NCBI GenBank assembly: GCA_937907455.1
Contig: CALESQ010000082.1
Coordinates: 10,898 to 74,897 of the forward strand
Source: an uncultured Caldilineales bacterium
GTDB lineage: Bacteria; Chloroflexota; Anaerolineae; JAAEKA01
Reading direction: 5' to 3'
DNA: 64,000 nt
Both the position numbers and the translations under genes were made by a program. Positions 2,776-18,975 of the stretch are shown here, piece by piece (position 1 is the first letter of the stretch; the number at the start of each line of letters is the position of its first letter). Under the pieces are notes generated by a model, which was given only the letters and a program-made list of their open reading frames with translations, searched no databases and had not been told where the DNA came from.

Positions 2776-4035
2776 ATGAAATCGTCTGCGACTAACTCTA
2801 CCCCAAGCCTGCGCACGTTGCCGCGCAACGTGTGGGTGGTGACAGCCACCAGCTTTCTCACCGACATCTCCAGCGAGATGCTGGTTTACCTGATTCCGCT
2901 GTTTTTGTCCACGGTGCTGGGTGTGCGCCTCAGCGTAGTCGGACTGATTGATGGCATAGCAGAAACTACTGCCAGCCTGGTAAAGGTCTTTTCCGGTTGG
3001 TTTAGCGACCGACTGGGCCGACGCAAGTGGCTGACGGTGGCAGGCTACAGCCTGTCTGCCCTGGCCAAGCCGCTGTTTGCCGTGGCTAACTCGTGGGCCG
3101 CGGTGCTGGCAATCCGCTTCACCGACCGGTTGGGCAAGGGCATCCGCACCGCGCCGCGCGATGCACTGGTAGCTGACAGCATTGATGAGCAGCATCGTGG
3201 GCTGGCTTTTGGCCTACACCGCGCCGGCGACACGGCAGGAGCGATGATTGGCCTGCTGCTGGCCCTGGCTGTCGTGCTTGCGATGCAAGGCCACGAACTG
3301 ACACTGGAGCGAAGTACGTTCCGCACCATTGCGCTGCTCAGCATTATTCCTGCGGCGCTGGCAGTGCTGGTGCTTGTTGTGGGTGCCCGCGATGTGGCGG
3401 TTGTCTCGCAGCGCGAACGGCCACGTCTCTCGCTGGCCGGCTTTGATGGCCGCTTCAAGCGCCTGCTGCTGGTGATGGTGCTGTTCACGCTGGGCAATTC
3501 ATCCGATGCGTTTTTGGTGCTGCGTGCCCAAAGCCTGGGGGTGAGCCTGCCTGCGGTGCTGGGGATGCTGGCGCTGTTTAACCTGCTCTACGCGCTGGTA
3601 TCCGGTCCCGCGGGCGCGCTCTCCGACCGCATAGGCCGACGACGGTTGATTGCGAGCGGTTGGTTGTTTTACGTGCTGATCTACCTGGGTTTTGCCAAAG
3701 CCCAGGCTGCCTGGCAACTCTGGGGGCTGTTTGCGGCTTATGGCCTGTACTATGCGCTGACAGAAGGCTCGGCTAAGGCGCTGGTAGCTGATGTGGTTAC
3801 GCCAGCCCAACGCGGCAGCGCCTATGGCCTGTTCAACGGCGCAATTGGCTTGGCGGCGCTGCCTGCCAGCCTGTTGGCCGGCCTGCTGTGGCAGGGAGCC
3901 GGTGGCTGGAACGGCTTCGGACCGGCTGCGCCCTTTATCTTCGGTGCCGGCATGGCGTTGCTGGCGGTAGCCCTGCTGCTGTGGTGGATGCCGCGAAATG
4001 ATGGCTGGGCAGACACGCCGCGCGGCCAACTGTGA
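2776..4035 (+). CDS. MFS transporter
   Basis: 419 aa with 12 predicted TM helices and the MFS signature GWFSDRLGRRKWL. Confidence 0.85.
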   Translation: MKSSATNSTPSLRTLPRNVWVVTATSFLTDISSEMLVYLIPLFLSTVLGVRLSVVGLIDGIAETTASLVKVFSGWFSDRLGRRKWLTVAGYSLSALAKPLFAVANSWAAVLAIRFTDRLGKGIRTAPRDALVADSIDEQHRGLAFGLHRAGDTAGAMIGLLLALAVVLAMQGHELTLERSTFRTIALLSIIPAALAVLVLVVGARDVAVVSQRERPRLSLAGFDGRFKRLLLVMVLFTLGNSSDAFLVLRAQSLGVSLPAVLGMLALFNLLYALVSGPAGALSDRIGRRRLIASGWLFYVLIYLGFAKAQAAWQLWGLFAAYGLYYALTEGSAKALVADVVTPAQRGSAYGLFNGAIGLAALPASLLAGLLWQGAGGWNGFGPAAPFIFGAGMALLAVALLLWWMPRNDGWADTPRGQL

Positions 4036-4067
4036 GACGTATAGCGGGATGAAATAGCCGCTCAATA

Positions 4068-4116
4068 ACAAGGCGGCTGAACTCTGCGTGTTACCACGGT
4101 GAGTTCAGCCGCCTTG
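4068..4116. terminator. perfect inverted repeat (aaggcggctgaact...agttcagccgcctt) between convergent genes; likely a bidirectional terminator
   Basis: 14-bp perfect stem seen in the sequence between the MFS gene (+) and the DinB-like gene (-). Confidence 0.5.
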
Positions 4117-4160
4117 TCGCGTTGACAACACGCCGCTGCATTGGCTGTTATGCGGGGTGA

Positions 4161-5189: not shown

Positions 5190-5217
5190 TCTGAGTTACG
5201 AATTACGAGTTACGGAT
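5190..5217. repeat. four imperfect copies of the heptamer GAGTTAC (reverse complement of GTAACTC), just downstream of the BNR gene stop
   Basis: gagttacgaattacgagttacggattac seen directly; same family as the 10x GTAACTC array at 60244. Confidence 0.6.
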
Positions 5218-8128
5218 TACTGCATGCCGCCGTCCCAAACGCTGCGGTCGTCAGCATGATATCTATAATGTCCACATCGCCATCACCGTCGCGGTCGTAG
5301 CGGTTGTTCCAGTCCGGCGAAACGGTGGTCTCCAGCCAGTGACTCGCTTCTGTGGCAATGTCAATCACATCTATATCGCCGTCGCCGTCAAAATCCGGGC
5401 AAGTACGATAAGGCGCGGCCGGCAGTGGCCAGACATACGCGCCGCGGCCGCGCGTCCACAGCGCCAACGTGGTAGCACCGGCATCCACCGTCATATCCCA
5501 GATCATCACATTGGGCAGGCCCGCCTGGAAGCGATACCACACCGGTGTGGCCGCGTTGATGTCGTTGGTATAGTACAACCCCCAATCTGTGCCCGCGAAC
5601 ACCTGCTGCGGGAAATTGGGGTTGACCATGATCGAATTGGCCGGGATGTTGGGTAGATTACCGCTTTTGTCCAGCCAAGTGAAGCTGGCGCAATTGGTGC
5701 TGCACGTCACTTGAAAAACGTGGCCGGTCGTGGCAGGAGTGTTCTGATCGAAGCCACCCACCGCAGCATACCCCACCAACGGATTGGCCGTGTCCTGATA
5801 CACATCCAGGATGGGACGATTGGGCAGCACCGCATTGCCACCGGTGACGTTGACCCAGGTGGCGCTGTTGGTCACGCCCTGCCCCAGGTTAAACCCCATT
5901 TGCACATTACCATCGTTGGTGCCAACAATGGCGCGGGTGTTGTCGCTCCACGCATAGTTAAGCTGATTGATGAAGGAGCGGTCGGCCAGCGTGTTTTTGG
6001 TGAGATCACCGCTGTTGACCACCCAGCGCGTACCGGTAGTGGCCCCGATAGCGCCATTAATCGACTCGAACACGCGGTAGCTGCCGGCGATCATGTGCGT
6101 GCAGCCGGTGGCCGGGCAGCCGTTTTTCTGGATTTCATAGGGAAAAACAAAGCTCAACCGGTCGCCTGACCACGCGCCTGTGGCCGAGGTCTGTGAGCCG
6201 TAAGCGCCGGTGGTGCTGACAGACAGGCTACCATTCTGGCTTTCCTGATACCAACGTTGCCCCAGCATCGGTTCGATACGGGCAAACATACCATCGCCGC
6301 CTTTGCGCAGTTGCCACACAGCCTGCGTAGGATTGCCCGAAGTCCACACATACACTGCCGAGCCATTGTCCTGCATACCGCCGTTGATGCCCGGCTGCGC
6401 GGCCGTGGCAAAATTGGCCGTGATATCACCAGAATAAAACTCCAGCGTAGGGAGCGAGTTGTTAAGCTGACTGAAGCTGGGCGAGGCTGCGTTGGCATTG
6501 GTGGTTACATAAGCGCCACCATCGTTGCCCGCCAGCAACACACTCGACGACCCCGGCACATAGGCCAGCGCGTGCTGATCTACGTGTACTGTGGTGCCAC
6601 CGGCATAGCCACAGGTCAGGTTGGTGTAGGTGGAGCCGCCATTGGTGGAACGGAAAATGTCCACAGTGCTCAGGTAGGTAGTATCGGCGTTATTGGGATC
6701 CACCGTGATGTTCTGATCGTACCAATTTTGACTGTAGTCACCAAAACAGCCGGTCAAGCCGGTGGGGCCGGTCTGCTTGCTCCAGGTAGTACCACCGTTG
6801 GTGCTGCGCCAGATACCCAGCAGCCCCCCGCGCTGCGTGCCGCCCGTGGCCAAAATCGCCTGAGCCACTACATAGATTACATCGGGGTTGCTGGGAGCAA
6901 TGGCTGCATCCAGACGCCCCAACTGGTTGCCCGCGCCGGTGCTGGTGTTGATGGGCGTGCCGACGGCAGTATCAGCAGGCCAGCCATTGTCCGCGCGGCT
7001 TAGCGTTTCCCAGCTTGCCGGACAGCCCTCAGTGGGCAGCGTGGCGCGGTACACGCCGTTAGCACCGTTCAAGTGAAGATTGCTCTGCACCGTTGTGGCA
7101 AAACCGCGCGCTCCGACGAAAGCATAAACCTGCGTGATGCTACCTTGATCGCGCAGAATCAGGCCGGTGATATCCTGGCGCTGTGTAGCAAAGGCATTGG
7201 TCAAGCAGGGGCCGGTCCAGTTATCGCCGGCATCGAACGAGAAATAAACCCCGGTTTTAGCACCCACCACTACATGGTTGCTGTTGTTGGGGTCCACCTG
7301 CACCTTGCCGATAGCCTGATATTGCGGGAAGTTGCCCGCGGGCTGAGTATAAGCGCCGTTGAACACTTCCGCGCCCAGCACAGTCCAAGTCGCGCCGGCG
7401 TCAGTACTCTTCAGCACTCCGGCGGCACCGAAGCTGAACGAACCAAAGCGCAGATCGCCGGTGCCCGCATACACGGTGTTGTGGTCGTTGGGATCCAGCG
7501 TGATATCACCGATGGCGATGGTACTCAGCAGCGGGTCGTCGGTGACCGAGGCCCAGGTAGTGCTGGCCGAACAGCAGTTCGTGGTTTTCCATACCCCACC
7601 GCCGTCCGAGCCGAGGTAAGCCACGTTGGGCGTCACCGGATCAACCACAATCACATTGGCACGCCCGCTTACCAGGCCATAGCTGTAGCAACTGATGCAG
7701 CCATTGCTTTGCAGCGGCTTGGGGCCCAGCGAAGTAAAGCGGTCAGGACTGAGCGCCAGCGGCGAACGGCCAGAGGTGCGCGTGTAGGTGATCTCACCAG
7801 CAGGCAGTGCGCGCGCCACGCGTGCATCCTGTTCGCGCGCCTCAAGATACCATGCCGGATTAAACTCACCGGTGGGGTAGCTGACACGATGGAAGAAATA
7901 ATCACCCATAGCCAGCAGGTTGGCACTTTCACTGCTCTCATCCTGCCCAGGTTCAGGCAGATAGCGTTCACGCCCCGGGTCTATATTGGGCGCAATGGCT
8001 GCAAACGCCGAGGACTCTCCGCTGCCTGCCGGGGCGCTCTCTGGAGCGGCTGAAGGAACAAGCGCCACACCCAGCACAAACAACAACAAAAACATGCCCA
8101 TCGCTGGGCGCAAGATAGCTTGTTTCAT
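5210..8128 (-). CDS. secreted BNR/Asp-box repeat protein (sialidase/GH74-like beta-propeller) with a C-terminal dockerin-like domain
   Basis: 972 aa; signal peptide (MKQAILRPAMGMFLLLFVLGVALVPSAA); multiple S-x-D-x-G-x-T-W Asp-box repeats (SFDAGDNWTG, STNGGTTWS, STDAGATWT); C-terminal tandem Ca-binding dockerin repeats (DFDGDGDIDVIDI ... DRDGDGDVDIIDI). Confidence 0.8.
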   Translation of the reverse strand: MKQAILRPAMGMFLLLFVLGVALVPSAAPESAPAGSGESSAFAAIAPNIDPGRERYLPEPGQDESSESANLLAMGDYFFHRVSYPTGEFNPAWYLEAREQDARVARALPAGEITYTRTSGRSPLALSPDRFTSLGPKPLQSNGCISCYSYGLVSGRANVIVVDPVTPNVAYLGSDGGGVWKTTNCCSASTTWASVTDDPLLSTIAIGDITLDPNDHNTVYAGTGDLRFGSFSFGAAGVLKSTDAGATWTVLGAEVFNGAYTQPAGNFPQYQAIGKVQVDPNNSNHVVVGAKTGVYFSFDAGDNWTGPCLTNAFATQRQDITGLILRDQGSITQVYAFVGARGFATTVQSNLHLNGANGVYRATLPTEGCPASWETLSRADNGWPADTAVGTPINTSTGAGNQLGRLDAAIAPSNPDVIYVVAQAILATGGTQRGGLLGIWRSTNGGTTWSKQTGPTGLTGCFGDYSQNWYDQNITVDPNNADTTYLSTVDIFRSTNGGSTYTNLTCGYAGGTTVHVDQHALAYVPGSSSVLLAGNDGGAYVTTNANAASPSFSQLNNSLPTLEFYSGDITANFATAAQPGINGGMQDNGSAVYVWTSGNPTQAVWQLRKGGDGMFARIEPMLGQRWYQESQNGSLSVSTTGAYGSQTSATGAWSGDRLSFVFPYEIQKNGCPATGCTHMIAGSYRVFESINGAIGATTGTRWVVNSGDLTKNTLADRSFINQLNYAWSDNTRAIVGTNDGNVQMGFNLGQGVTNSATWVNVTGGNAVLPNRPILDVYQDTANPLVGYAAVGGFDQNTPATTGHVFQVTCSTNCASFTWLDKSGNLPNIPANSIMVNPNFPQQVFAGTDWGLYYTNDINAATPVWYRFQAGLPNVMIWDMTVDAGATTLALWTRGRGAYVWPLPAAPYRTCPDFDGDGDIDVIDIATEASHWLETTVSPDWNNRYDRDGDGDVDIIDIMLTTAAFGTAACSNP

Positions 8129-10731: not shown

Positions 10732-11060
10732 TCAAATATGACTTTGACCCAACGCGATACGGATCAGTGATAGCCGGCACGATGGTGTCGGCTTGAGCGC
10801 CCCCTGGGCTTTCAGCCTGCGGGGTGCTGCGCAAAAACGCCCCAGCACGGGGTCATATTCGCAGCGCCATAGTTCCGTCTGGCGCACACCGCTCGAGTTG
10901 GTGGTGATAGCGGTGGAGGTCAGGTGGTCGTTGAGCAGGTAGAACGTGTTGCCGCCAGTGCGCATTGCGACGCGGACGGCTCCGGCGTAGTAGTCCCTTG
11001 GGGAGGCTACGCACTACTTGCGCACGGTCGTCCGGTTGTCGCGCTCGTAGTAGGCGTCGA
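10732..11060 (-). pseudogene. RHS/YD-repeat core fragment (remnant A), disrupted by a 23-nt insertion with an in-frame TAG and a 35-nt junction insertion; the toxin tip is almost entirely deleted
   Basis: Translation: ...YERDNRTTVRK*CVASPRDYYAG...FYLLNDHLTSTAITTNSSG...YDPVLGRF followed by the hairpin insertion at 10799-10833 and then a short ADTIVPAITDPY remnant. Confidence 0.6.
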
Positions 11061-11062
11061 CC

Positions 11063-11476
11063 TCACGAATTCTCTGCCAACCACCCCAGGAAAGCCGCCG
11101 GAGTGACGATGCGGATACCGTGATGCTCTCCCAAGTCCAAGAGGTGGTGGTCACCGGAAACGATCATCGATGCTCCGGCGACAAGGGCGCACTCAATAAA
11201 CATGTCGTCGTCCCGGTCGTTGTGAACCACATGCAAGTTGCCGGTGATCTCCACCTGCTGACCGAAGCGCCGAAAGTCGTAAACTGCGGCACGGACGTTG
11301 TCGGCCGAAAAACCGAACTTGTCGTAGAGTTTTTCGGAGAACTCGGCCAGCATCTCGCGGCAATAGACCACATCAACCAATCCCGCTCGGGCCGCCAGCC
11401 AGCACTTGTAGGCCGCGCCGCGCCAAAGCACGGCTGCGAGACGAACGTTGGTGTCAAAGACGACTTTGTCAGTCAC
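11063..11476 (-). CDS. PIN-domain toxin (TIGR00305-like) of a type II toxin-antitoxin pair
   Basis: 137 aa with acidic PIN residues (VFDTNV, HNDRDDDMFIE, VSGDHHL); overlaps the upstream small ORF by 8 nt. Confidence 0.7.
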   Translation of the reverse strand: MTDKVVFDTNVRLAAVLWRGAAYKCWLAARAGLVDVVYCREMLAEFSEKLYDKFGFSADNVRAAVYDFRRFGQQVEITGNLHVVHNDRDDDMFIECALVAGASMIVSGDHHLLDLGEHHGIRIVTPAAFLGWLAENS

Positions 11477-11723
11477 GGCGGTCTTCGTGTTTCAGCTCGT
11501 CGATGAGTTGCATACGTTCGTCTTCCGAAAGTGCATCCCAATCGAGACCTCGCTGCGCCGAGATGGCTCGCATGCGCTGATTTCCGTAGGCCACCAGGTT
11601 GTCCAGGTCTTCCAGGTCGGAGATGAGCGCCCGTAGCAACGCGTGTTTGCCGTTGGGCGTAAGTTGACGCGCCAAGCCGATCATTTGTGCCTCTGGTAGG
11701 GGGAGAAGAACCGTTGCTTCCAT
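11469..11723 (-). CDS. putative antitoxin partner of the PIN toxin
   Basis: 84-aa ORF immediately upstream and overlapping the PIN gene; typical TA gene order and size. Confidence 0.5.
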   Translation of the reverse strand: MEATVLLPLPEAQMIGLARQLTPNGKHALLRALISDLEDLDNLVAYGNQRMRAISAQRGLDWDALSEDERMQLIDELKHEDRRD

Positions 11724-11789
11724 GGAAAACGCCTCACACTGGGACCGGATGTCTATGCACTGATATCGCCAGGATAGATTTTACTATGG

Positions 11790-11930
11790 TTGGCGCTTGA
11801 TCGCAAACCGCATATCCATGACACTACTATCTGCCCGCCGCTGCTATTTGTGGTGATGGCGGTGGACGTCAGGCTTGTCTTGAGCATGGTCGAAAAATGG
11901 TCGTTGATTGGGTGCGCAGAGCGGATAGTG
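11790..11930 (-). pseudogene. short RHS core remnant B (...LKTSLTSTAITTNSSG...)
   Basis: Shares the DHL-STAITTNSSG segment with the other RHS core fragments; flanking sequence is unrelated. Confidence 0.35.
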
Positions 11931-12012
11931 CCGCCGATGTGTTGATGCAAAGAGATGCACATCAACACACCGGCGGAGTACTCATTAGGTTGGTAATTAT
12001 CGGCCTTCTGCC

Positions 12013-12366
12013 CTATCTTCCAGCAACGCGTCGCCTCCTGAGCCATTCCACGACAAGCCATGCAATCAGCAGGTTGACGACCAGCGTCAGAGACAACCAG
12101 GCGATGCGATCGTCATGCTCCGCCACCAGCAATACAAGGATCGAGTTGACAATGAGCAGAGATACAGCATAGAACTGAGCGCCAAAACTGCCTGGGTCGA
12201 CGGCAGGTGTCCCGGGGTAGCCAGAAATCCAAGCAAGCCAAGTGGGTATTGGCACCGCATCTGAAGTTGATCTCGAGTATCGCTGCCTTGGGAAGGCCAC
12301 CAGCCATATTACGCCGAATCCTATAAAACCCAATACCCAGTCAGTAATTGCTTCACTCATTGCCAA
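12013..12366 (-). CDS. small membrane protein; putative immunity protein for the adjacent RHS toxin tip
   Basis: 117 aa with three TM helices; immediately downstream of and overlapping the tip at 12357-13067, the position typical for RHS immunity genes. Confidence 0.45.
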   Translation of the reverse strand: MAMSEAITDWVLGFIGFGVIWLVAFPRQRYSRSTSDAVPIPTWLAWISGYPGTPAVDPGSFGAQFYAVSLLIVNSILVLLVAEHDDRIAWLSLTLVVNLLIAWLVVEWLRRRRVAGR

Positions 12367-13620
12367 CGCGCGCGCCTCCCCTGTTTTTCTCTGGTAGGTT
12401 TTGACGGCGCGGGAGTGGCAGCTCTGCCCTGTGAGCGAGATGGCTGCTGGATTCTATCGATCACGGCACTCGCTGGAGCATTTGATGCTATGCCTCCTGC
12501 GAACGACCGAACCACCGCTGGAAAGGCAACCGCTGCGTTTGTCAAGTCCTCGCTAACGATATTACGCGCCTCGTCAGCCCAGCGAGACAACCAAGGCGAG
12601 GCCCTATCCGGTGGCAAGGGATTGGCGCTCTTCAATGGCCCGATTATCCTCGCGGCCACGGATCCAAGTCCGACACTAACCATCAAATCAGCAGGATTGA
12701 CTTGCCGGCCATTCACTGCTTGACTTGCCAAGTATTGTGCGCCGCTCGCCACGGCGTTTGTTACCACAGCCCCCGCCACGGTGGTTGCGGTCAATGGAGC
12801 AAAGAACCCCACAGTAGCACTAACCATCGTTGCCACCCTTACATCCTTCCAATTGATCGTATCCCACCTTTCTTCCAGCGTTCCATCGCTACCAAGCATT
12901 TGACCGGCTAAGGACCCCACAAAACCGACTGTGCCAACGATCAAGCCAGACACTGCCATTGCAGCGATGGGTATGAAAAAATGGCCGCTGGGATCGCTAT
13001 ACTTGAGCGGGTTATTCAGCACATAGCTGTACCTGTTCAGCGCCTGCGGATTGCCCGGCTCCGGCACGATGGTGTCGGCTTGAGCGCCCCTGGGCTTTCA
13101 GCCTGCGGGATGCTGCGCAAAAACGTCCCAACTGCGCATTATACCAGCGCACGTTGTAAAAGCACAGCCCGATTGATGCCTTCGGCAGTCTTCCCACTGA
13201 CCTGTAAAGCGCCACGTGATGGGTGTCGTGCCGGTGCTGAAGCGCGTCTTGTTTTAGGGTTTGTACAGCACCTTGCCTAACAAGCTGCCATCAGTCCCGT
13301 TGGCCGTAACGTTGGTGCCGCCTAAGTGGTCACCGAGCAGGTAGCAGGTCTCCACGCCGCTACGCATCGCCACGCGCGCGCTACCGGCGTAGTAGTCCCT
13401 CCGGGAGGCTACGCACTACTTTCTGACCGTCGTGCCGTTGTCGCGCTCGTAAGTGTTGCCGATGTAGACGGTGGTCACCCCGCCCACCGTGGCCTTGACG
13501 CGCTTGCCGTCGCCGTCGTAGACATAGGTGGCGTTCACACCGCTGCCCGTGATGCTGGTCACGTGGTTCTCCACGTCGTAGGCCAGGGTCACGTCCTGGT
13601 TGCCGTTGATGCGCCAAGCT
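12357..13620 (-). pseudogene. orphan RHS C-terminal cassette C: core fragment (13068-13620, carrying both the 23-nt and 34-nt insertions) plus a toxin tip (12357-13067) with predicted membrane-spanning/glycine-rich segments
   Basis: Core: YD repeats (YVYDGDGKRV, TYERDNGT), RK*CVASRRDYYAGSARVAMR, RWYNAQLGRF then the 34-nt insertion at 13086-13119. Tip starts PEPGNPQALNRYSYVLNNPLKYSDPSGH. Confidence 0.6.
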
Positions 13621-13625
13621 CAATC

Positions 13626-13668
13626 ATGGGCCTCACAGACTCTCCGGTCTGCGAGGCCCATGATGCGT
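13626..13668. other. perfect 11-bp-stem palindrome (tcatgggcctc ... gaggcccatga) at the upstream boundary of cassette C
   Basis: Seen directly; it separates the cassette D immunity gene from the cassette C core fragment. Confidence 0.5.
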
Positions 13669-13691
13669 GCTTTCGCCAGTGGTTCAGCCAT

Positions 13692-14201
13692 TTACTCCTG
13701 GTCTTCATCCATGGACTGTTCGAGGGCGTCGATCAATCGGGATAGCCTGATCTCCAGCGCCTTATGCCCCGATGTGCCGGCCTCTGGCATGCCTGTGATT
13801 TCTGCCGCCGCCACACGCGTCTCGGCGATGGGATGTCGCGATCCATCATCGTCCTGGCTGTACTCCACGGTCCATGCGTGGCCGAACATGTCGATGCGGC
13901 CGAAGCACGGAACGGGCCAATCTTCACGATTGAAGGGACGATCAGTAAGAATCAACGGCCACTCGCCATAGATGATCCCCAGATCGCCGAACCATTCGAC
14001 AAGGATAGCTTGCGACGAGCTGAGATGATTGATATCTGTGGCCGTGGGTGGCAGCTTATAGTGAAATGGAAAGAAGTATCCTAGACCTCCTTTCGTCTTC
14101 AGACTACCACGAACGATAATGCCTGCAGCGTACCCGCCGCTCTGCAATGGTACAGCAAACCATTGTCCTTCACGATACCGGATCCGCTTGGTTCTTGTCA
14201 T
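13692..14201 (-). CDS. putative immunity protein for the GIY-YIG-like RHS tip (cytoplasmic, 169 aa)
   Basis: ORF immediately downstream of the tip at 14214-14936 in the same orientation; no TM segments and no detectable catalytic motifs. Confidence 0.4.
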   Translation of the reverse strand: MTRTKRIRYREGQWFAVPLQSGGYAAGIIVRGSLKTKGGLGYFFPFHYKLPPTATDINHLSSSQAILVEWFGDLGIIYGEWPLILTDRPFNREDWPVPCFGRIDMFGHAWTVEYSQDDDGSRHPIAETRVAAAEITGMPEAGTSGHKALEIRLSRLIDALEQSMDEDQE

Positions 14202-14213
14202 CGGAGACTCCTG

Positions 14214-14988
14214 CTACTGCATTCCGGCCCGCCGTGCTGCGTTGATATACTGGGCGCGTCGTGGATTGCGCGGACTGATAGGTTGGATCTTGTTCTGGGG
14301 GGGCTGATAGCGGTCATAGAGTATCTGTTCTGCGCCTCGTTGCACCTCGCGACTATTCGATTGAAACTCGGCATTGAATCGCAACTCGGGAAAACTGCGA
14401 CCGTGTTCAGCTTCTCGTCGAGCCAGGTTATTGGTGCGACCTGTATATTGCACGTTGCCATTGGCCGGATCTCGCAACGTGTAGACGCCTCCAGATGGAG
14501 TGTTGGCAGTCGCCGCGGCGGGTGTAGTCGGTGCGCGGTTGGCAGCCCTCGGCACATCACTCGCCCGGTTCGCCAGCTCGCCAGCATTCTCAGCCTGCCG
14601 GACCACCGCGGCGGCCTCATCGGCGTGGGTGGCGACCTCGATGATCTCATCAACGTGCGCTGCCGCCTTCGCCACATCATCGGCGTGCGCCAACCCGCGC
14701 ACCAACAGCCCGCCCCCGGTCGCTACCGGGATGATCAGCCCCGCGACATCGGCCGCCAACGAAAGACCACCGATCCACGTCAGGCCATTGGTCTTGATGT
14801 CGGAGATGTCATAGGCGATAAACGCAATGTCGAACGCGCTCTCGACCCAATGACCGCTTGGATCGGTATACTTGAGCAGATTACCGTTTACATAGCTATA
14901 CCTGTTCAGCGACTGCGGGTCGCCCGGTTCCGGCACGATGGTGTCGGCTTGAGCGCCCCTGGGCTTTCAGCCTGCGGGGTGCTGCGCA
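14214..14988 (-). pseudogene. orphan RHS C-terminal cassette D: only the junction (with the 34-nt insertion at 14955-14988) plus a tip carrying a GIY-YIG-like nuclease domain
   Basis: Tip begins PEPGDPQSLNRYSYVNGNLLKYTDPSGH. C-terminal GGVYTLRDPANGNVQYTGRTNNLARREAEHGR fits the GIY-(10-11)-YIG...R...E nuclease pattern. Only about 12 nt of RHS core are retained upstream of the insertion. Confidence 0.55.
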
Positions 14989-15015
14989 AAAACGTCCCAG
15001 CACGGATCGCTTCTC

Positions 15016-15639
15016 TTATTCGAAGTCAATGACTAGGGGCCGTCCATCCTTCGGCCATGCATGCGCCGGCTTGTCATCTGGAAAGACTTCGGCCAAGGTA
15101 CCAGGTTGTACTCGATTCAGAAGATTTAAACGAAAAGACGAATCGAGGCGGAGCGATGCTTGCCTGGGAGGAAAGAAGTAGTATTTCCATCCAGATGCGA
15201 CGATTCCCTGATCCTGCCAAAAAAGATCCACCCGGAGCCGAAAACTTTCCACATCCCGCCCATAGGTACCATAGTAGGAATCAGGTTGTCCCAAGCACGC
15301 TATCAGGTCACGCATGGTAGGACCTTTACCATTATAATCAATGTGCATGCCACTCAGTGTTGAATTCTTTAGATTTATCACATAGTTTGTCTTGCCGCTA
15401 CTCCATGAGATTTTTTGAAATGTTCGATCGACATGCAGACGATCTTCAGATACCTGGAGATATTGCGTAACCCAGGTTTGCATTTGATCCAACGAAACCG
15501 GTATGGTGAAGTAATCTTCCAGGCCAGTAGCAACCATTTCGCTACAATCACGTTGCGGAAGCCATCCGGTGCAGCTGGACAATAGAAAAACTATTAACAG
15601 AACAATATGTTTCGTTATGTGGTGGAATGAGGATTTCAT
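15016..15639 (-). CDS. lipoprotein; putative immunity protein for the HExxH toxin tip
   Basis: 207 aa with a lipobox (LLSSC); low GC (about 42%) versus 62% background; directly downstream of the tip gene with a 4-nt overlap. Confidence 0.5.
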   Translation of the reverse strand: MKSSFHHITKHIVLLIVFLLSSCTGWLPQRDCSEMVATGLEDYFTIPVSLDQMQTWVTQYLQVSEDRLHVDRTFQKISWSSGKTNYVINLKNSTLSGMHIDYNGKGPTMRDLIACLGQPDSYYGTYGRDVESFRLRVDLFWQDQGIVASGWKYYFFPPRQASLRLDSSFRLNLLNRVQPGTLAEVFPDDKPAHAWPKDGRPLVIDFE

Positions 15640-16820
15640 TGTAGGAATGCATTCATTATATTCATCTGGTAACGCAACTCTTGGCTCCAGTGCTCTCCCA
15701 GATGTTTCTGAATTTCAGTATTCTTATAGCCTGATACTCCCATAGTAACATCGTAAAAAACCCACACCGTCACCGCTTCGGCCCAGCGTTCCCAAGCGCG
15801 TACGCACCCTATACAGCTCTCGGCATAATCTGTCAGAGCAGTTCCGCTCCAGGCCATCGAGAACGGCTGGAGATGTGTTTGACCATAGCTTGTGGTACCT
15901 ACCCACATCCTGTTATGCCAATCAATGACGTGAGCCAGTTCATGGACTATGGTGGTTCGATTGTACAAATCATCGTTGACGAAAGGTATTTTTACATTTG
16001 AAGTGCCTGGAAGTAATGCGTTGGGACGCCCGAAAAACGATCCTTCCTTAATCGTTACTGGTCCGCCTAACAGCTTGCCAAGTTGCGCTAAACCGGCTTG
16101 TACAAGCCCTGATCCAAGTCTGCGTCCGAACTCAACCACACCTTGCCCCATGGCTGACATTTGTGCAGCATTCGACTGCCAATTCCATTGACCGGAAAAC
16201 GAGATGCCCGCTTCGGCTAACACTTCGTTAAGTATTCCTATATCGGCGAATGAGGCCAGGCCTGCTGCAGACCATCCGCTGCCGTTATCAAAGTACCCGT
16301 GCGCATTATACCAGCGATTCTTCCAGTACCATTCATTCTCCCAGCAGGCGTGGTCATCGCCAGCGCAGGCGGCATGGCCGCTGGGATCGCTATACTTGAG
16401 CGGGTTATTCAGCACATAGCTATACCTGTTCAGCGACTGCGGGTCGCCCGGCTCCGGCACGATGGTGTCGGCTTGAGCAAAACGTCCCAGCACGGGGTCG
16501 TAGAAGCGCGCGTTATAATACATCAACCCGCCGATGCCAGGGTCGCGCTGGCCGGTGAATGTATAGCTGGTCGGCAGTGCATTGCTGCCTCCGCTGCGCA
16601 GTGATCCCCACGGGTAGTAACGCTGTGCCGTGGAGGTGCTGGTCGCCGTGTTGTACGTGACATTGGTGCTGCCGAGATGGTCGGCAAACAAGTAGTGGAC
16701 CTGGTTCGCGCCGGTCGTGCCGTCCTGCACACGCATGGCAACGCGGCGGCCGGCGGCATGGTAGTAGCTGCGCCAGGTGTAGTTGGCCGGCAAGACGGCT
16801 ACGAGCGCCGGCTCCATCAT
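15636..16820 (-). CDS. orphan RHS C-terminal fragment with an intact core/tip junction and an HExxH metallopeptidase-like toxin domain
   Basis: ...YTWRSYYHAAGRRVAMR...YYLFADHLGSTNV...RFYDPVLGRFAQADTIVPEPGDPQSLNRYSYVLNNPLKYSDPSGH then a ~270-aa domain with HELAHVIDW. It has neither the 34-nt nor the 23-nt insertion. Only ~130 aa of core, so it is still an orphan without its own N-terminus. The tip region has lower GC. Confidence 0.6.
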   Translation of the reverse strand: MMEPALVAVLPANYTWRSYYHAAGRRVAMRVQDGTTGANQVHYLFADHLGSTNVTYNTATSTSTAQRYYPWGSLRSGGSNALPTSYTFTGQRDPGIGGLMYYNARFYDPVLGRFAQADTIVPEPGDPQSLNRYSYVLNNPLKYSDPSGHAACAGDDHACWENEWYWKNRWYNAHGYFDNGSGWSAAGLASFADIGILNEVLAEAGISFSGQWNWQSNAAQMSAMGQGVVEFGRRLGSGLVQAGLAQLGKLLGGPVTIKEGSFFGRPNALLPGTSNVKIPFVNDDLYNRTTIVHELAHVIDWHNRMWVGTTSYGQTHLQPFSMAWSGTALTDYAESCIGCVRAWERWAEAVTVWVFYDVTMGVSGYKNTEIQKHLGEHWSQELRYQMNIMNAFLQ

Positions 16821-16841
16821 AGATGGTCAATGTCATGGCGC

Positions 16842-17324
16842 TTACCCGCTCTTGCGGACCTGCCGACCCAGGTAACGAATCGCCACCCAAACAGCGAAAG
16901 TGATTATCACAATAGCCAGAGCGCTTCCATACGTCACACTCCGTTGATACGCTGGATCGCAGGCCAAGGACATGCGAGAGGCGCGCGCAGCGGATTGTGT
17001 TGAGATCAATACCGCGCATAACATGCGTTGAATCACCATGCTTCCGATCAAAGCTAACAAAGCTGTTAGCCATATAGCTAAATCCGCCAGGCAAGATGCA
17101 CCTCCCCATATCTGGTAGATCAAGATCGCTAGCAAACCACCGACAGTTAGGTAAAAAACTGTAAGTATCTGAAACGCTAGCGTTCCATTGGGATACAAAC
17201 CAATGACTGGAACAGATACGTTGATCACAGCCAGAATTACTGCCGCAGCAATTCCAAAACAGATGCTAAGGATAAATGCCCTGAACAACGCTGATCGGGC
17301 TGTCGGGTCGACGTCTAATCTCAT
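16842..17324 (-). CDS. four-TM membrane protein; putative immunity protein for the glycine-zipper tip
   Basis: 160 aa, hydrophobic, directly downstream of the tip at 17352-18140. Confidence 0.45.
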   Translation of the reverse strand: MRLDVDPTARSALFRAFILSICFGIAAAVILAVINVSVPVIGLYPNGTLAFQILTVFYLTVGGLLAILIYQIWGGASCLADLAIWLTALLALIGSMVIQRMLCAVLISTQSAARASRMSLACDPAYQRSVTYGSALAIVIITFAVWVAIRYLGRQVRKSG

Positions 17325-17351
17325 GAATGAGTCTCCTGAACCTTGACGACG

Positions 17352-18744
17352 CTATGGCCCCGTGTATCCAACTGCTTGCTGACTCCACTCTTGAACGGCA
17401 GCGTCAATGAGCTGCTGCAGGATCTCTGAAGCCACATCATATGTCCCGGCAGAGATTGCCTTCATTATGTTCTCCAGATGACTCGCAGACAAGTTCACTG
17501 TTCGTCCTTCGAGTACGATTTGGCCGCGCAGTACTCCATTGCCAGGCAGGAGCCGGATCATTGGGACGCCGCCCTTGAAGACCTGGTCACCCAACGAGTT
17601 CAGGATCGGGTTCATCAGCTTTTGCATCCCATATCCTGCACCTGCGGACACGCTGCCTCCAAGTGCATCAAAGGTCATAGTCTGGACATCCAGGAAACCA
17701 GCATCCAATGCGCTTTGGAGCAATGCATCATTATTCCAGCCCTGCCCATGCATCCATTGAACAAGTTGTTTGCTCCCACCCTCTGTCAACGCCGCAGCTT
17801 GTCCACCCAAAGCACCACCGACACCTCCCAGGGCCACTGTTCCATATACGCCAACGCCCAGATAGGTACCGATACCCAACGTCCCTCCGGCCACTGCCCC
17901 TCCCATAAATCCTGCTGCTACCTTGCCACCATCGACCTTAAGTGCTGCATCCCCGAATGACATTCCCGCATTTAGGTTGTTCATCACCTGGGGTACATAT
18001 GCGATTGCTGCACCAATCACGCCTCCGATTAATGCGGTCGCAAGCAGTGGAGAATGGCCGTCGCTATCAACGAACTTGATAGGGTTGTTAAGGACATAGC
18101 TATACCTGTTCAGCGACTGCGGGTCGCCCGGCTCCGGCACGATGGTGTCGGCTTGAGCGCCCCTGGGCTTTCAGCCTGCGGGGTGCTGCGCAAAAACGTC
18201 CCAGCACGGGGTCGTAGAAGCGCGCGTTGTAATACATCAACCCGCCGATGCCAGGGTCGCGCTGGCCGGTGAATGTATAGCTGGTCGGCAGTGCATTGCT
18301 GCCTCCGCTGCGCAGTGATCCCCACGGGTAGTAGCGTTGAGCCACGGTCTGGCCGTCACCGGCACGATAGCTCACGCTGCTGGAACCCAGGTGGTCGCTG
18401 AACAGATAGTAAACCTGGTTCGATGTTGTGCTGCGCACACGCATGGCAATGCGCTGCCCACCCAGGCTATAGTAGCTGCGCCAGACATGAGTAGCCGGTG
18501 GATTTACATCCGGTGCAGCAGCCGCATTCTCCACCAGCTCTGCCGGCTGCGCCGCCACTACAGGAGAGATGACCGCACCGGGTTGTACCTCACGAACAGC
18601 TTCTGGCATTACAGATTGCTGCATGGATGTATCCGCCTGACCGCCGGGGAGCGTATAGGTCACCACCAGTTTAGGTCTACGGGTGGCTGTACCGTTTTCG
18701 CGGCTGCCAAAGTAGTAGCTCATGATGGCGCTGTTCAGCGGCAA
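17352..18744 (-). pseudogene. orphan RHS C-terminal cassette F: core fragment (about 18141-18500, with the 34-nt insertion at 18159-18192 and no 23-nt insertion) plus a glycine-zipper-rich, membrane-active-type tip (17352-18140)
   Basis: Core: HVWRSYYSLGGQRIAMR...YYLFSDHLGSSSV...RFYDPVLGRF then the insertion. Tip: PEPGDPQSLNRYSYVLNNPIKFVDSDGH followed by GxxxG-rich hydrophobic segments. Confidence 0.6.
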
Positions 18745-18975
18745 CGTGGGTCGCAGCCGGCGTTACCATCCCTGCCAACAAAGAAACCGCCACTATCCAA
18801 AATTAACCGCGCAGTAAACCTGAAGTCTTCACAACTTTCCTCCGACAGCTTGTGAGTGTCTGTGCCCTGTTCCGGTCAACGGCGTTAGTCATAAGAAGAA
18901 CATGGCCCGCTTTATCTGCATTCGTCGCAGCATAGCGTAATTATAACAACGATTTGCAATAGCGACAAATATCAG

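Follow-up and report, generated by a model that had tools for sequence, protein, structure and literature searches.

The DNA analysed here is a stretch of 64,000 nucleotides (nt) from an uncultured Caldilineales bacterium (contig CALESQ010000082.1), referred to below, at its full length, as the window. Between 10.77 and 18.83 kb its minus strand carries an array of displaced RHS 3' cassettes, composed of six core-derived fragments, four toxin tips, four open reading frames (ORFs) in the immunity position and one PIN toxin-antitoxin pair. Four units join a partial core, a divergent tip and a small ORF on the same strand, which is the arrangement of an orphan array, and two further core remnants are tip-less. 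The most unusual feature of the locus, overlooked in the initial annotation made from the sequence alone, is a set of conserved, stop-bearing inserts in the core ends. Related loci or contigs are designated by L-numbers and protein homologues by P-numbers. The same array is present in a JGI metagenome contig (L001) and in an NCBI metagenome-assembled genome (MAG; L002, GCA_040275545.1) with 99.9-100% identity. An assembly artefact was ruled out, since the JGI, NCBI and ENA assemblies are identical and the contigs break solely within repeats. The features, in the reading direction of the minus strand, are as follows.

18193-18830, minus strand: leader A, a 5'-truncated CBM96/DNRLRE-type RHS 3' end that runs to ...YDPVLGRF, with a frameshift near 18760
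18159-18192, minus strand: 34-nt insert, copy 1 (TGCGCAGCACCCCGCAGGCTGAAAGCCCAGGGGC), at the GRF / AQADT junction
17352-18158, minus strand: core end (AQADTIVPEPGDPQSLNRYSYVLNNPIKFVDSDGH) and tip A, glycine-zipper rich, with 11 GxxxG motifs
16842-17324, minus strand: immunity-position ORF A (ImmA), 160 aa, about four hydrophobic segments, AGGAG 8 nt 5' of the ATG
16374-16838, minus strand: core end of E, an RHS core-end fragment
15636-16820, minus strand: cassette E, a 394-aa ORF with core end and HExxH tip (tip at 15636-16373)
15016-15639, minus strand: immunity-position ORF E (ImmE), 207 aa, lipoprotein-like N-terminus (LLSSC)
14989-15010, minus strand: core stub C, about 20 nt (about six codons), ..SVLGRF
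14955-14988, minus strand: 34-nt insert, copy 2, directly after core stub C
14214-14954, minus strand: core end and tip C, a probable Tox-URI1/GIY-YIG-like nuclease
13692-14201, minus strand: Imm26, 169 aa, PF15428, AGGAG 7 nt 5' of the ATG
13120-13613, minus strand: leader B, a decayed YD-type core end with TAG, TAA and a frameshift
13396-13416, minus strand: 21-nt insert in leader B, source of its TAG
13086-13119, minus strand: 34-nt insert, copy 3, with a single C>T difference
12357-13085, minus strand: core end and tip B, one N-terminal hydrophobic segment
12013-12360, minus strand: immunity-position ORF B (ImmB), about 115 aa, three hydrophobic segments
11843-11893, minus strand: sixth, small core remnant (..LTSTAITTNSSG..), about 50 nt
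11063-11723, minus strand: toxin-antitoxin pair, an 84-aa ORF (11469-11723) upstream and the PIN_3 protein (11063-11476)
10774-11062, minus strand: leader F, a terminal truncated core end without tip, internally deleted
10994-11014 and 10799-10833, minus strand: inserts in leader F, of 21 nt (makes a TAG) and 35 nt

Regarding the identity of the fragments, TIGR03696 (Rhs_assc_core, cut-off 32.5 bits) matched E along the whole model (positions 1-76, 73.2 bits) and leader A over positions 1-48 (36.5 bits), while in A, C and B the insert splits the domain, so that their tip ORFs match positions 54-76 with scores under the cut-off. The core-ending motif DPxG(H/L), at which cleavage is predicted, reads DPSGH in the translations of E, C and B and DSDGH in A. 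A profile built from the tip-E homologues together with their RHS ends matches the corresponding region in YenC2, TccC3, Tse5 and further RHS proteins of solved structure. In these proteins, which belong to Tc toxins and to Rhs effectors of the type VI secretion system, the core-end sequence up to DPxGH forms the plug of the RHS/YD shell; the array differs from them in keeping only the final 110-140 residues, and thus no shell can form. Searches by tblastn with the full-length RHS proteins of relatives gave window matches confined to 10849-18756 and to C-terminal parts, and no match to the N-terminal and middle RHS parts was found anywhere in the 64 kb. The only YD-shell sequence in the window is a 58-aa YD piece in leader B, the biggest ORFs elsewhere are non-RHS and the array does not adjoin any full-length rhs gene within the window. 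Judged from these comparisons, the pieces are RHS fragments rather than RHS proteins. With leader A truncated at about 18.83 kb and neither shell nor N-terminus in the 64 kb, the tips cannot be delivered from here.

These results, together with the parents and orphans found in relatives, bear out what the initial annotation had proposed, namely displaced orphan RHS C-terminal cassettes with immunity genes in the absence of a nearby full-length rhs gene, arranged as minus-strand core-end fragments with four distinct tips and a small ORF behind each tip. It had also described every core terminus as running into its tip, which is true only of E: in A, C and B the frameshifting, TGA-bearing 34-nt insert lies between the two, and F has no tip. 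The uniform core of 130-180 aa that it assigned to each copy has to be given up, as C retains about six codons, B carries a TAG, a TAA and a frameshift, and F is internally deleted.

Related arrays show from which genes the leaders came. Leader A consists of the tail of a DNRLRE/CBM96 domain (..RRPKLVVTY), a linker and then ..WRSYY..YYLFSDHLGS..YYNARFYDPVLGRF, and its homologues are all short ORFs annotated as DNRLRE domain-containing proteins. In L020-22 an intact RHS protein of 2589 aa contains CLIPPER, RHS repeats and two CBM96/Disaggr (DNRLRE) domains and ends with ..RPKLTVTY..HTWRSYY..DSSGH, followed by an EC869-like tip; the gene order there is intact RHS, immunity gene, two tyrosine recombinases and orphans. 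L018 presents a full-length YD-type RHS gene, then an insertion sequence (IS) and then orphans; the two frameshifts in this gene are probably long-read assembly errors. Given these parents, leader A derives from a CBM96-type gene and leaders B and F from a YD-type one, which agrees with the accepted model for Rhs orphans, in which old tips are displaced through recombination in the core end (PMC3150448, PMC3967940).

The two recombinases deserve a separate mention. They are adjacent (L020:4062-6535, also in L021-L024), have 528 and 296 aa with about 35% mutual identity, and occur in one species only, this being the only related array with linked tyrosine recombinases. On one side of them is the intact rhs gene with its immunity gene, on the other an orphan in which homology sets in exactly at ..QLGRF (L020:6652). 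One possibility is that the two recombinases form an integrative element directed at the rhs core end, where it would exchange the tip.

Concerning the tips, the GIY-YIG match (PF01541) of tip C reaches 19.8-20.1 bits (E 8e-4), which is under the cut-off of 22.6, and extends over no more than the first 30 positions of the profile; the tip's motif VYTL..VQYTGRT..RREAEH agrees with the Y, YxG, R, RxxE pattern (PMC3482391). The next ORF is Imm26 (PF15428, 62.9 bits against a cut-off of 23.3, E 3.9e-17), a soluble protein, and Tox-URI1 with Imm26 is a listed toxin/immunity pairing (PMC3482391). Tip C is probably a Tox-URI1-like nuclease, with Imm26 as its partner.

Tip E has homologues in 138 clusters at 50% identity (P0063-P0200; 78 at E <1e-10), many at the C-terminal ends of proteins 1600-2160 aa long. 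Among 46 homologues, E145 and H148 do not vary, H144 is kept in at least 90% and a WAE motif follows downstream in the consensus. The AlphaFold model has a pLDDT of 94.8, and its best PDB match in Foldseek is the M34 protease PPEP-1/Zmp1, with a probability of 0.99 but an E of 0.011 and a TM of 0.39-0.50. Profile matches to lethal factor and PPEP-1 are weak (E 0.005-0.05) and agree with the Foldseek result. Tip E is probably an HExxH domain of M34/PPEP-1-like fold that recurs at protein C-termini, and no Pfam model covers its family.

Tip A has homologues joined to intact RHS ends (P0017-19), and against L035 its ratio of nonsynonymous to synonymous substitution (dN/dS) is 0.14 at a dS of 0.67, which shows purifying selection; it has no sequence relative in the PDB. 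For tip B, which has three GxxxG motifs and one hydrophobic segment, no homologue and no family were found, and tips A and B are mutually unrelated. Pfam and NCBIfam gave no Tox, Ntox, Imm or other family for tips A, B and E or for ImmA, ImmB and ImmE.

The downstream ORFs may be the cognate antidotes of the tips. The indirect signs of this are the ATGA stop/start overlaps of E with ImmE (15639-15636) and of tip B with ImmB (12360-12357), the Shine-Dalgarno sequences and the Tox-URI1/Imm26 pairing; the overlaps, like the AGGAG boxes ahead of ImmA and Imm26, are consistent with operons of tip and immunity gene. In the toxin-antitoxin pair the PIN_3 match has an E of 9e-16 and the 84-aa upstream ORF, for which Pfam and NCBIfam searches gave zero family matches, overlaps the PIN_3 gene by 8 nt, as in a VapBC-type pair.

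The initial reading of a GIY-YIG-like nuclease, an HExxH metallopeptidase-like domain and an embedded PIN pair agrees with these data. Profile searches of the tips and immunity ORFs recovered Imm26, left GIY-YIG below threshold and provided no family for the A, B and E sets. Of the two membrane-active/glycine-zipper tips it had named, such a nature is not supported for tip B, with its three GxxxG motifs, single hydrophobic segment and lack of homologues. It had further taken cassette E as recently acquired for its low GC. The GC content does drop to 0.43-0.51 at 15.0-16.2 kb, compared with 0.56-0.62 in the flanking DNA, and that of ImmA is also low (0.48-0.52). Low GC is typical of rhs tips, and in this array it is a general mark of the tip and immunity modules, with its minimum in E. 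As E has it in common with other modules, low GC does not date E, and no assembly without E was found.

The 34-nt insert TGCGCAGCACCCCGCAGGCTGAAAGCCCAGGGGC has four copies in the window, with one mismatch at most, against a chance expectation of none. Its position is constant, with cgtttt (..GRF) on one side and gctcaagccgac (AQAD..) on the other, that is, between ...LGRF and AQADTIVPEPG. It interrupts A, C and B as 34 nt and the stub F as 35 nt, E being the sole uninterrupted core-tip ORF; in leader F homology stops 25 nt past the insert (AQADTIVP). Between A and E the identity is 97% over the 151 nt upstream and 100% over the 65 nt downstream, and the exact difference is the insert. Read as T plus 33 nt it gives AQHPAG*KPRG, with the frame shifted and an in-frame TGA. 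Seven of the eight copies have five T; the remaining one (L013:1201) has four and is therefore 33 nt long, in frame save for the TGA. The RHS sequence just 5' of the insert (CCCCGTGCTGGG[G/A]CGTTTTT; window 10840-10852, minus strand, and other copies) gives a short stem, after which comes the T5 run; stem and run pass a terminator-like filter in copy F, and the extra T of the 34-nt form lengthens the run.

A 20-mer of the insert was searched in 185,579 species-representative genomes and gave three true matches, all at the same RHS junction of one Anaerolineae MAG (MFD10595 bin30), which has an additional fourth, variant copy. A metagenome scan with this 20-mer returned chance matches only, from a collection evidently without these organisms; a viral scan gave no match, and a protein search with the frameshifted tail peptide a single one. 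Between genomes, a block of about 70 nt around the insert is identical while the flanks have diverged: the insert has 0-2 differences in 33 nt against 5-22% in the homologous flanks. For winA and L013:3129 the figures are 0/33 in the insert and 25/135 in the flanks (P ~0.001), in a small sample in which, as for all these conservation statistics, copies within one genome are non-independent.

Furthermore, the leaders carry a wider family of related inserts, which share the ends 5' G[T/C]GCG[C/T]AGCCTCC ... GGAG[T/G]GGA 3' and vary in the middle. Lengths in this main family are 21, 32, 36, 37 and 64-73 nt (a span of 21-73 nt), and the long forms hold a nested segment similar to the 34-nt insert. 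Each insert splits a Tyr codon TAC between TA and C and thereby creates an in-frame TAG. Four such sites are used, RK|YYY (window 13396-13416 and 10994-11014), QR|YYPWG, YT|YTGQ and RH|Y(D/N)P; at a density of about 10 TAC in 400 nt, the chance of four out of four at TA|C is ~4e-7. Two further types were observed: a 24-nt insert after PEPGN, and a palindromic one of 29-39 nt (CACCTGCACTTGCG...CGCAGGTGCAAGTG) in the Met codon of RRVA|MRV in DNRLRE-type leaders (L018:10374-10412, L019:13595-13623), which in L018 is in frame and adds 13 residues with no stop.

Excision of the inserts in silico restores the family consensus and open frames. After their precise removal the leader-to-tip ORFs of winA, L013o, L019a and L020o are uninterrupted, and these leaders differ from each other by a dS of 0.5-1.4 with a dN/dS of 0.20-0.32, the same range as against the intact main gene. 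The inserts vary less than the adjacent third codon positions, as in the 32-nt insert, where 3/32 positions differ versus 10/40 third positions (P 0.025). The insert loci come from five metagenome or MAG sources and are exclusively RHS orphan leaders, with up to four inserts in one leader (L009); the intact rhs genes of L018 and L020 have none, and an 11-mer scan of ~155 kb from these organisms found complete copies in rhs core ends only. Moreover, several orphans start exactly at ..LGRF or Y|DP beside such elements (window C, L013:1274, L020:6652, L034).

A number of known categories were tried for the inserts and rejected. No Rfam family matched the window region or L009, L013, L019 and L031, and no tRNA-like sequence was found in the inserts. 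Alignment to the neighbouring RHS coding DNA scored the same as with shuffled inserts, which argues against copying by duplication or template switching, and a general genomic repeat of the REP/REPIN kind is not supported, with no copies outside rhs core ends in the ~155 kb. An alternative genetic code was discarded because TGA, TAG and TAA all terminate long ORFs, and intrinsic terminators or promoters at the inserts are unsupported. A miniature inverted-repeat transposable element (MITE) of the IS630/Tc1 type does not fit, as two of the four TA|C sites (L009:3863, L013:1274) have no right-hand TA and the complementary ends are just CCTCC/GGAGG. Bypassing of the T4 gene 60 type is excluded for practical purposes, matched codons being possible solely in the four-T copy L013:1201.

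Taking these data together, the array is most probably a 'headless' set of displaced rhs 3' cassettes, partly decayed and carried by an Anaerolineae genome. Following the established model, a full-length rhs gene would have gained a new tip and immunity gene through recombination in the conserved core end, the former pair would have shifted downstream with a short core piece as leader, and the delivery part would since have been lost at this locus. The four immunity genes probably would protect from the same toxins of neighbours, and the tips could be a silent reservoir; a retained use as immunity store is suggested by the analogy with AID and rAID arrays (10.1101/471110).

As for the inserts, we tentatively regard them as small insertion elements that are non-autonomous and specific to the core end of rhs genes, a reading that may well fail. 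Their targets would be TA^C in Tyr codons and TTTT^GCTCAA at the GRF junction, and they would persist since the orphan leaders are untranslated, with the side effect of locking the tips out of frame. In a broader and somewhat more doubtful formulation, Anaerolineae would possess undescribed inserts of 21-73 nt specific for the rhs 3' core (with the 34-nt relative TGCGCAGCACCCC...GGGGC) that act either as site-specific mini mobile elements or as cis-acting locks or recombination signals, and that would govern which toxin cassette can join the delivery gene. If the inserts are sequence-specific elements or signals linked to the core end of rhs, they would offer a handle on the silencing of toxin cassettes and on their exchange with the expressed gene, explained so far only by general homologous recombination; if they are junk, the locus is ordinary.

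Several observations weigh against this interpretation. The inserts have no linked transposase or recombinase in the window, and the tyrosine recombinases of L020 have no homologue there; the inserts also lack target duplications and convincing terminal inverted repeats, and their hairpin or RNA structure is not exceptional, with z-scores of -1.7 to +0.8 versus shuffles (not significant). Promoter-like and terminator-like matches in the window are not above their frequency in shuffled sequence. Conservation of the inserts could partly reflect gene conversion, and the insert of the dead-end fragment F changes about as fast as its surroundings in L006, a strain variant of 98.7%. In the array itself, tip B and the three immunity-position ORFs remain without family assignment in Pfam and NCBIfam, and the term headless describes this locus alone, as a full-length rhs gene may sit elsewhere in the genome.

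Some of these points would be expected if the inserts were neutral debris, that is, a few old lesions in untranslated leaders spread by duplication, gene conversion and vertical descent. The confinement of the inserts to orphan leaders, where lesions are tolerated, the further lesions of leader B, the rate of change in L006 fragment F and the lack of exceptional secondary structure and of an Rfam match all agree with this. Nevertheless, inserts with the same ends at four Tyr TAC codons indicate several sequence-specific events, they are the sole lesions in the otherwise open frames of winA, L013o, L019a and L020o despite the divergence of these leaders, and they are better conserved than their flanks in both comparisons given above; debris seems a somewhat less likely account. 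It is possible, if questionable, that the inserts are instead functional cis elements, which by analogy with the rAID-1 repeats and integron attC could work as translation locks or insulators before silent tips or as recombination signals at cassette boundaries. The TAG made by each main-family insert and the TGA of the 34-nt form would suit a lock; the identical block of about 70 nt between diverged flanks and the orphans that begin exactly beside inserts would suit a signal, for which rAID-1, with a recombinase and repetitive intergenic sequences (10.1101/471110), is a precedent and the two recombinases adjoining an orphan that starts at LGRF a possible parallel. On the other hand, neither the window nor most related loci have a recombinase, four inserts in one leader (L009) are unlike a boundary signal, the stops are not in all three frames and no structure is significant.

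A very improbable alternative is that the inserts are bypassed by ribosomal hopping or frameshifting, or excised from the RNA, so that leader and tip are made as one protein. The exact restoration of frames by excision and the dN/dS of 0.2-0.3 in the leaders would be explained by it, and L013:1201 keeps the frame and has GGC-UGA...AGG-GGC, matched Gly take-off and landing codons around a stop in a small stem-loop, which recalls T4 gene 60. However, a +1 shift would have to be added in the seven copies with five T, matched codons are absent from the TA|C inserts, most of which shift the frame (21, 32, 36 and 37 nt), TGA and TAG are ordinary stops in this genome and a low dN/dS can be inherited from the time within intact genes; we know of no bacterial mechanism that removes mRNA segments of 21-73 nt. 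It also seems improbable that the cassettes, at least E with ImmE, work intracellularly as toxin-antitoxin-like modules. The 394-aa ORF of E is intact and has an ATG, its stop codon overlapping the start of ImmE, a genuine PIN pair lies within the same array, and a Salmonella rhs orphan is reported to act in this way (PMC7043789). Against this, no Shine-Dalgarno sequence or promoter lies 5' of E, and the other three tips have no in-frame starts with ribosome-binding sites.

In comparison with known systems, the array belongs to a known class, of which it is a Chloroflexota example, and the inserts may be new. With the enterobacterial orphan rhs-CT/rhsI loci of Salmonella Typhimurium LT2 and Dickeya (PMC3150448, PMC3967940) it shares tandem same-strand cassettes of core piece, tip and immunity gene, tips that differ compositionally from the core and an accepted origin by core-end recombination. 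It differs from them in having no adjoining full-length rhs gene and a 5'-truncated first leader, in that three of the four tips are cut off by the frameshifting 34-nt insert and leaders carry TAG-creating inserts, and in its host, a member of the Chloroflexota (Anaerolineae) whose parent gene has CBM96/DNRLRE domains before the core end. To our knowledge, such inserts have not been described for the enterobacterial orphans. RHS-linked tips and the Tox-URI1/Imm26 pair are also found in the polymorphic toxin and polyimmunity loci of Zhang et al. 2012 (PMC3482391), where Chloroflexi are among the phyla with RHS toxins; unlike the cassettes reported there, tips A, B and E and three immunity-position ORFs match no Pfam Tox/Ntox/Imm family, and tip E adds a recurrent, unnamed M34-like HExxH toxin-tip family. 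The rAID-1 arrays of Bacteroidales, defined by a 5' XerD-like recombinase and made up mostly of immunity genes (10.1101/471110), are likewise same-strand arrays and probable immunity stores without their own delivery, with skewed GC and repeated sequence between cassettes, whereas the present array has no recombinase, keeps intact tips and has RHS core ends and inserts as its repeats.

Regarding the inserts alone, the gap of T4 gene 60 and the mitochondrial 'byps' are likewise short non-coding inserts in a frame that start with or contain a stop, but here most copies shift the frame and the TA|C inserts lack matched codons. REP/REPIN, Correia MITEs and IS200/IS605-derived PATEs resemble them in a length of tens of nt, conserved ends, a variable middle, nested copies and no coding capacity, and the IS200/IS605 family also makes no target duplication. 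The inserts differ from REP/REPIN, MITEs and PATEs in occurring only in rhs core ends (in the ~155 kb), with no TA duplication and no significant hairpin, and no RAYT or TnpA gene is linked to them.

Some further observations concern the surroundings of these arrays. The best sigma-70-like match of the region (window 18940-18968, minus strand; TTGTCG-17-TATAAT with an upstream TG) sits in an AT-richer spacer just 5' of the truncated leader A and could drive the whole array, although matches of this kind do not exceed their frequency in shuffles. In L019 the orphan array begins about 50 nt from a tRNA-Val gene (L019:8584-8660) and ends at an IS110-family transposase; the window has no tRNA gene. 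L034 and L035 are Chloroflexota-like arrays with their own conserved elements directly 5' of orphan cassettes. In L034 this is a GC-rich sequence of about 50 nt that ends with ..GGAGGGAGAGGGCC, present in two copies (L034:2230-2345 and 4015-4130) just before (Y)DPAIGRF; in L035 it is a perfect 13-bp inverted repeat (GCACGAATACACG/CGTGTATTCGTGC; L035:30-95) between a PEPGNxQS stub and a restarted ..SPDTIVPDPGN leader. Finally, two genes past the array and unrelated to it, the window encodes a secreted protein of 972 aa (5210-8128, minus strand) with faint matches to Sortilin-Vps10/BNR-like repeats, whose C-terminal DGDGDxDxxD repeats resemble dockerin.

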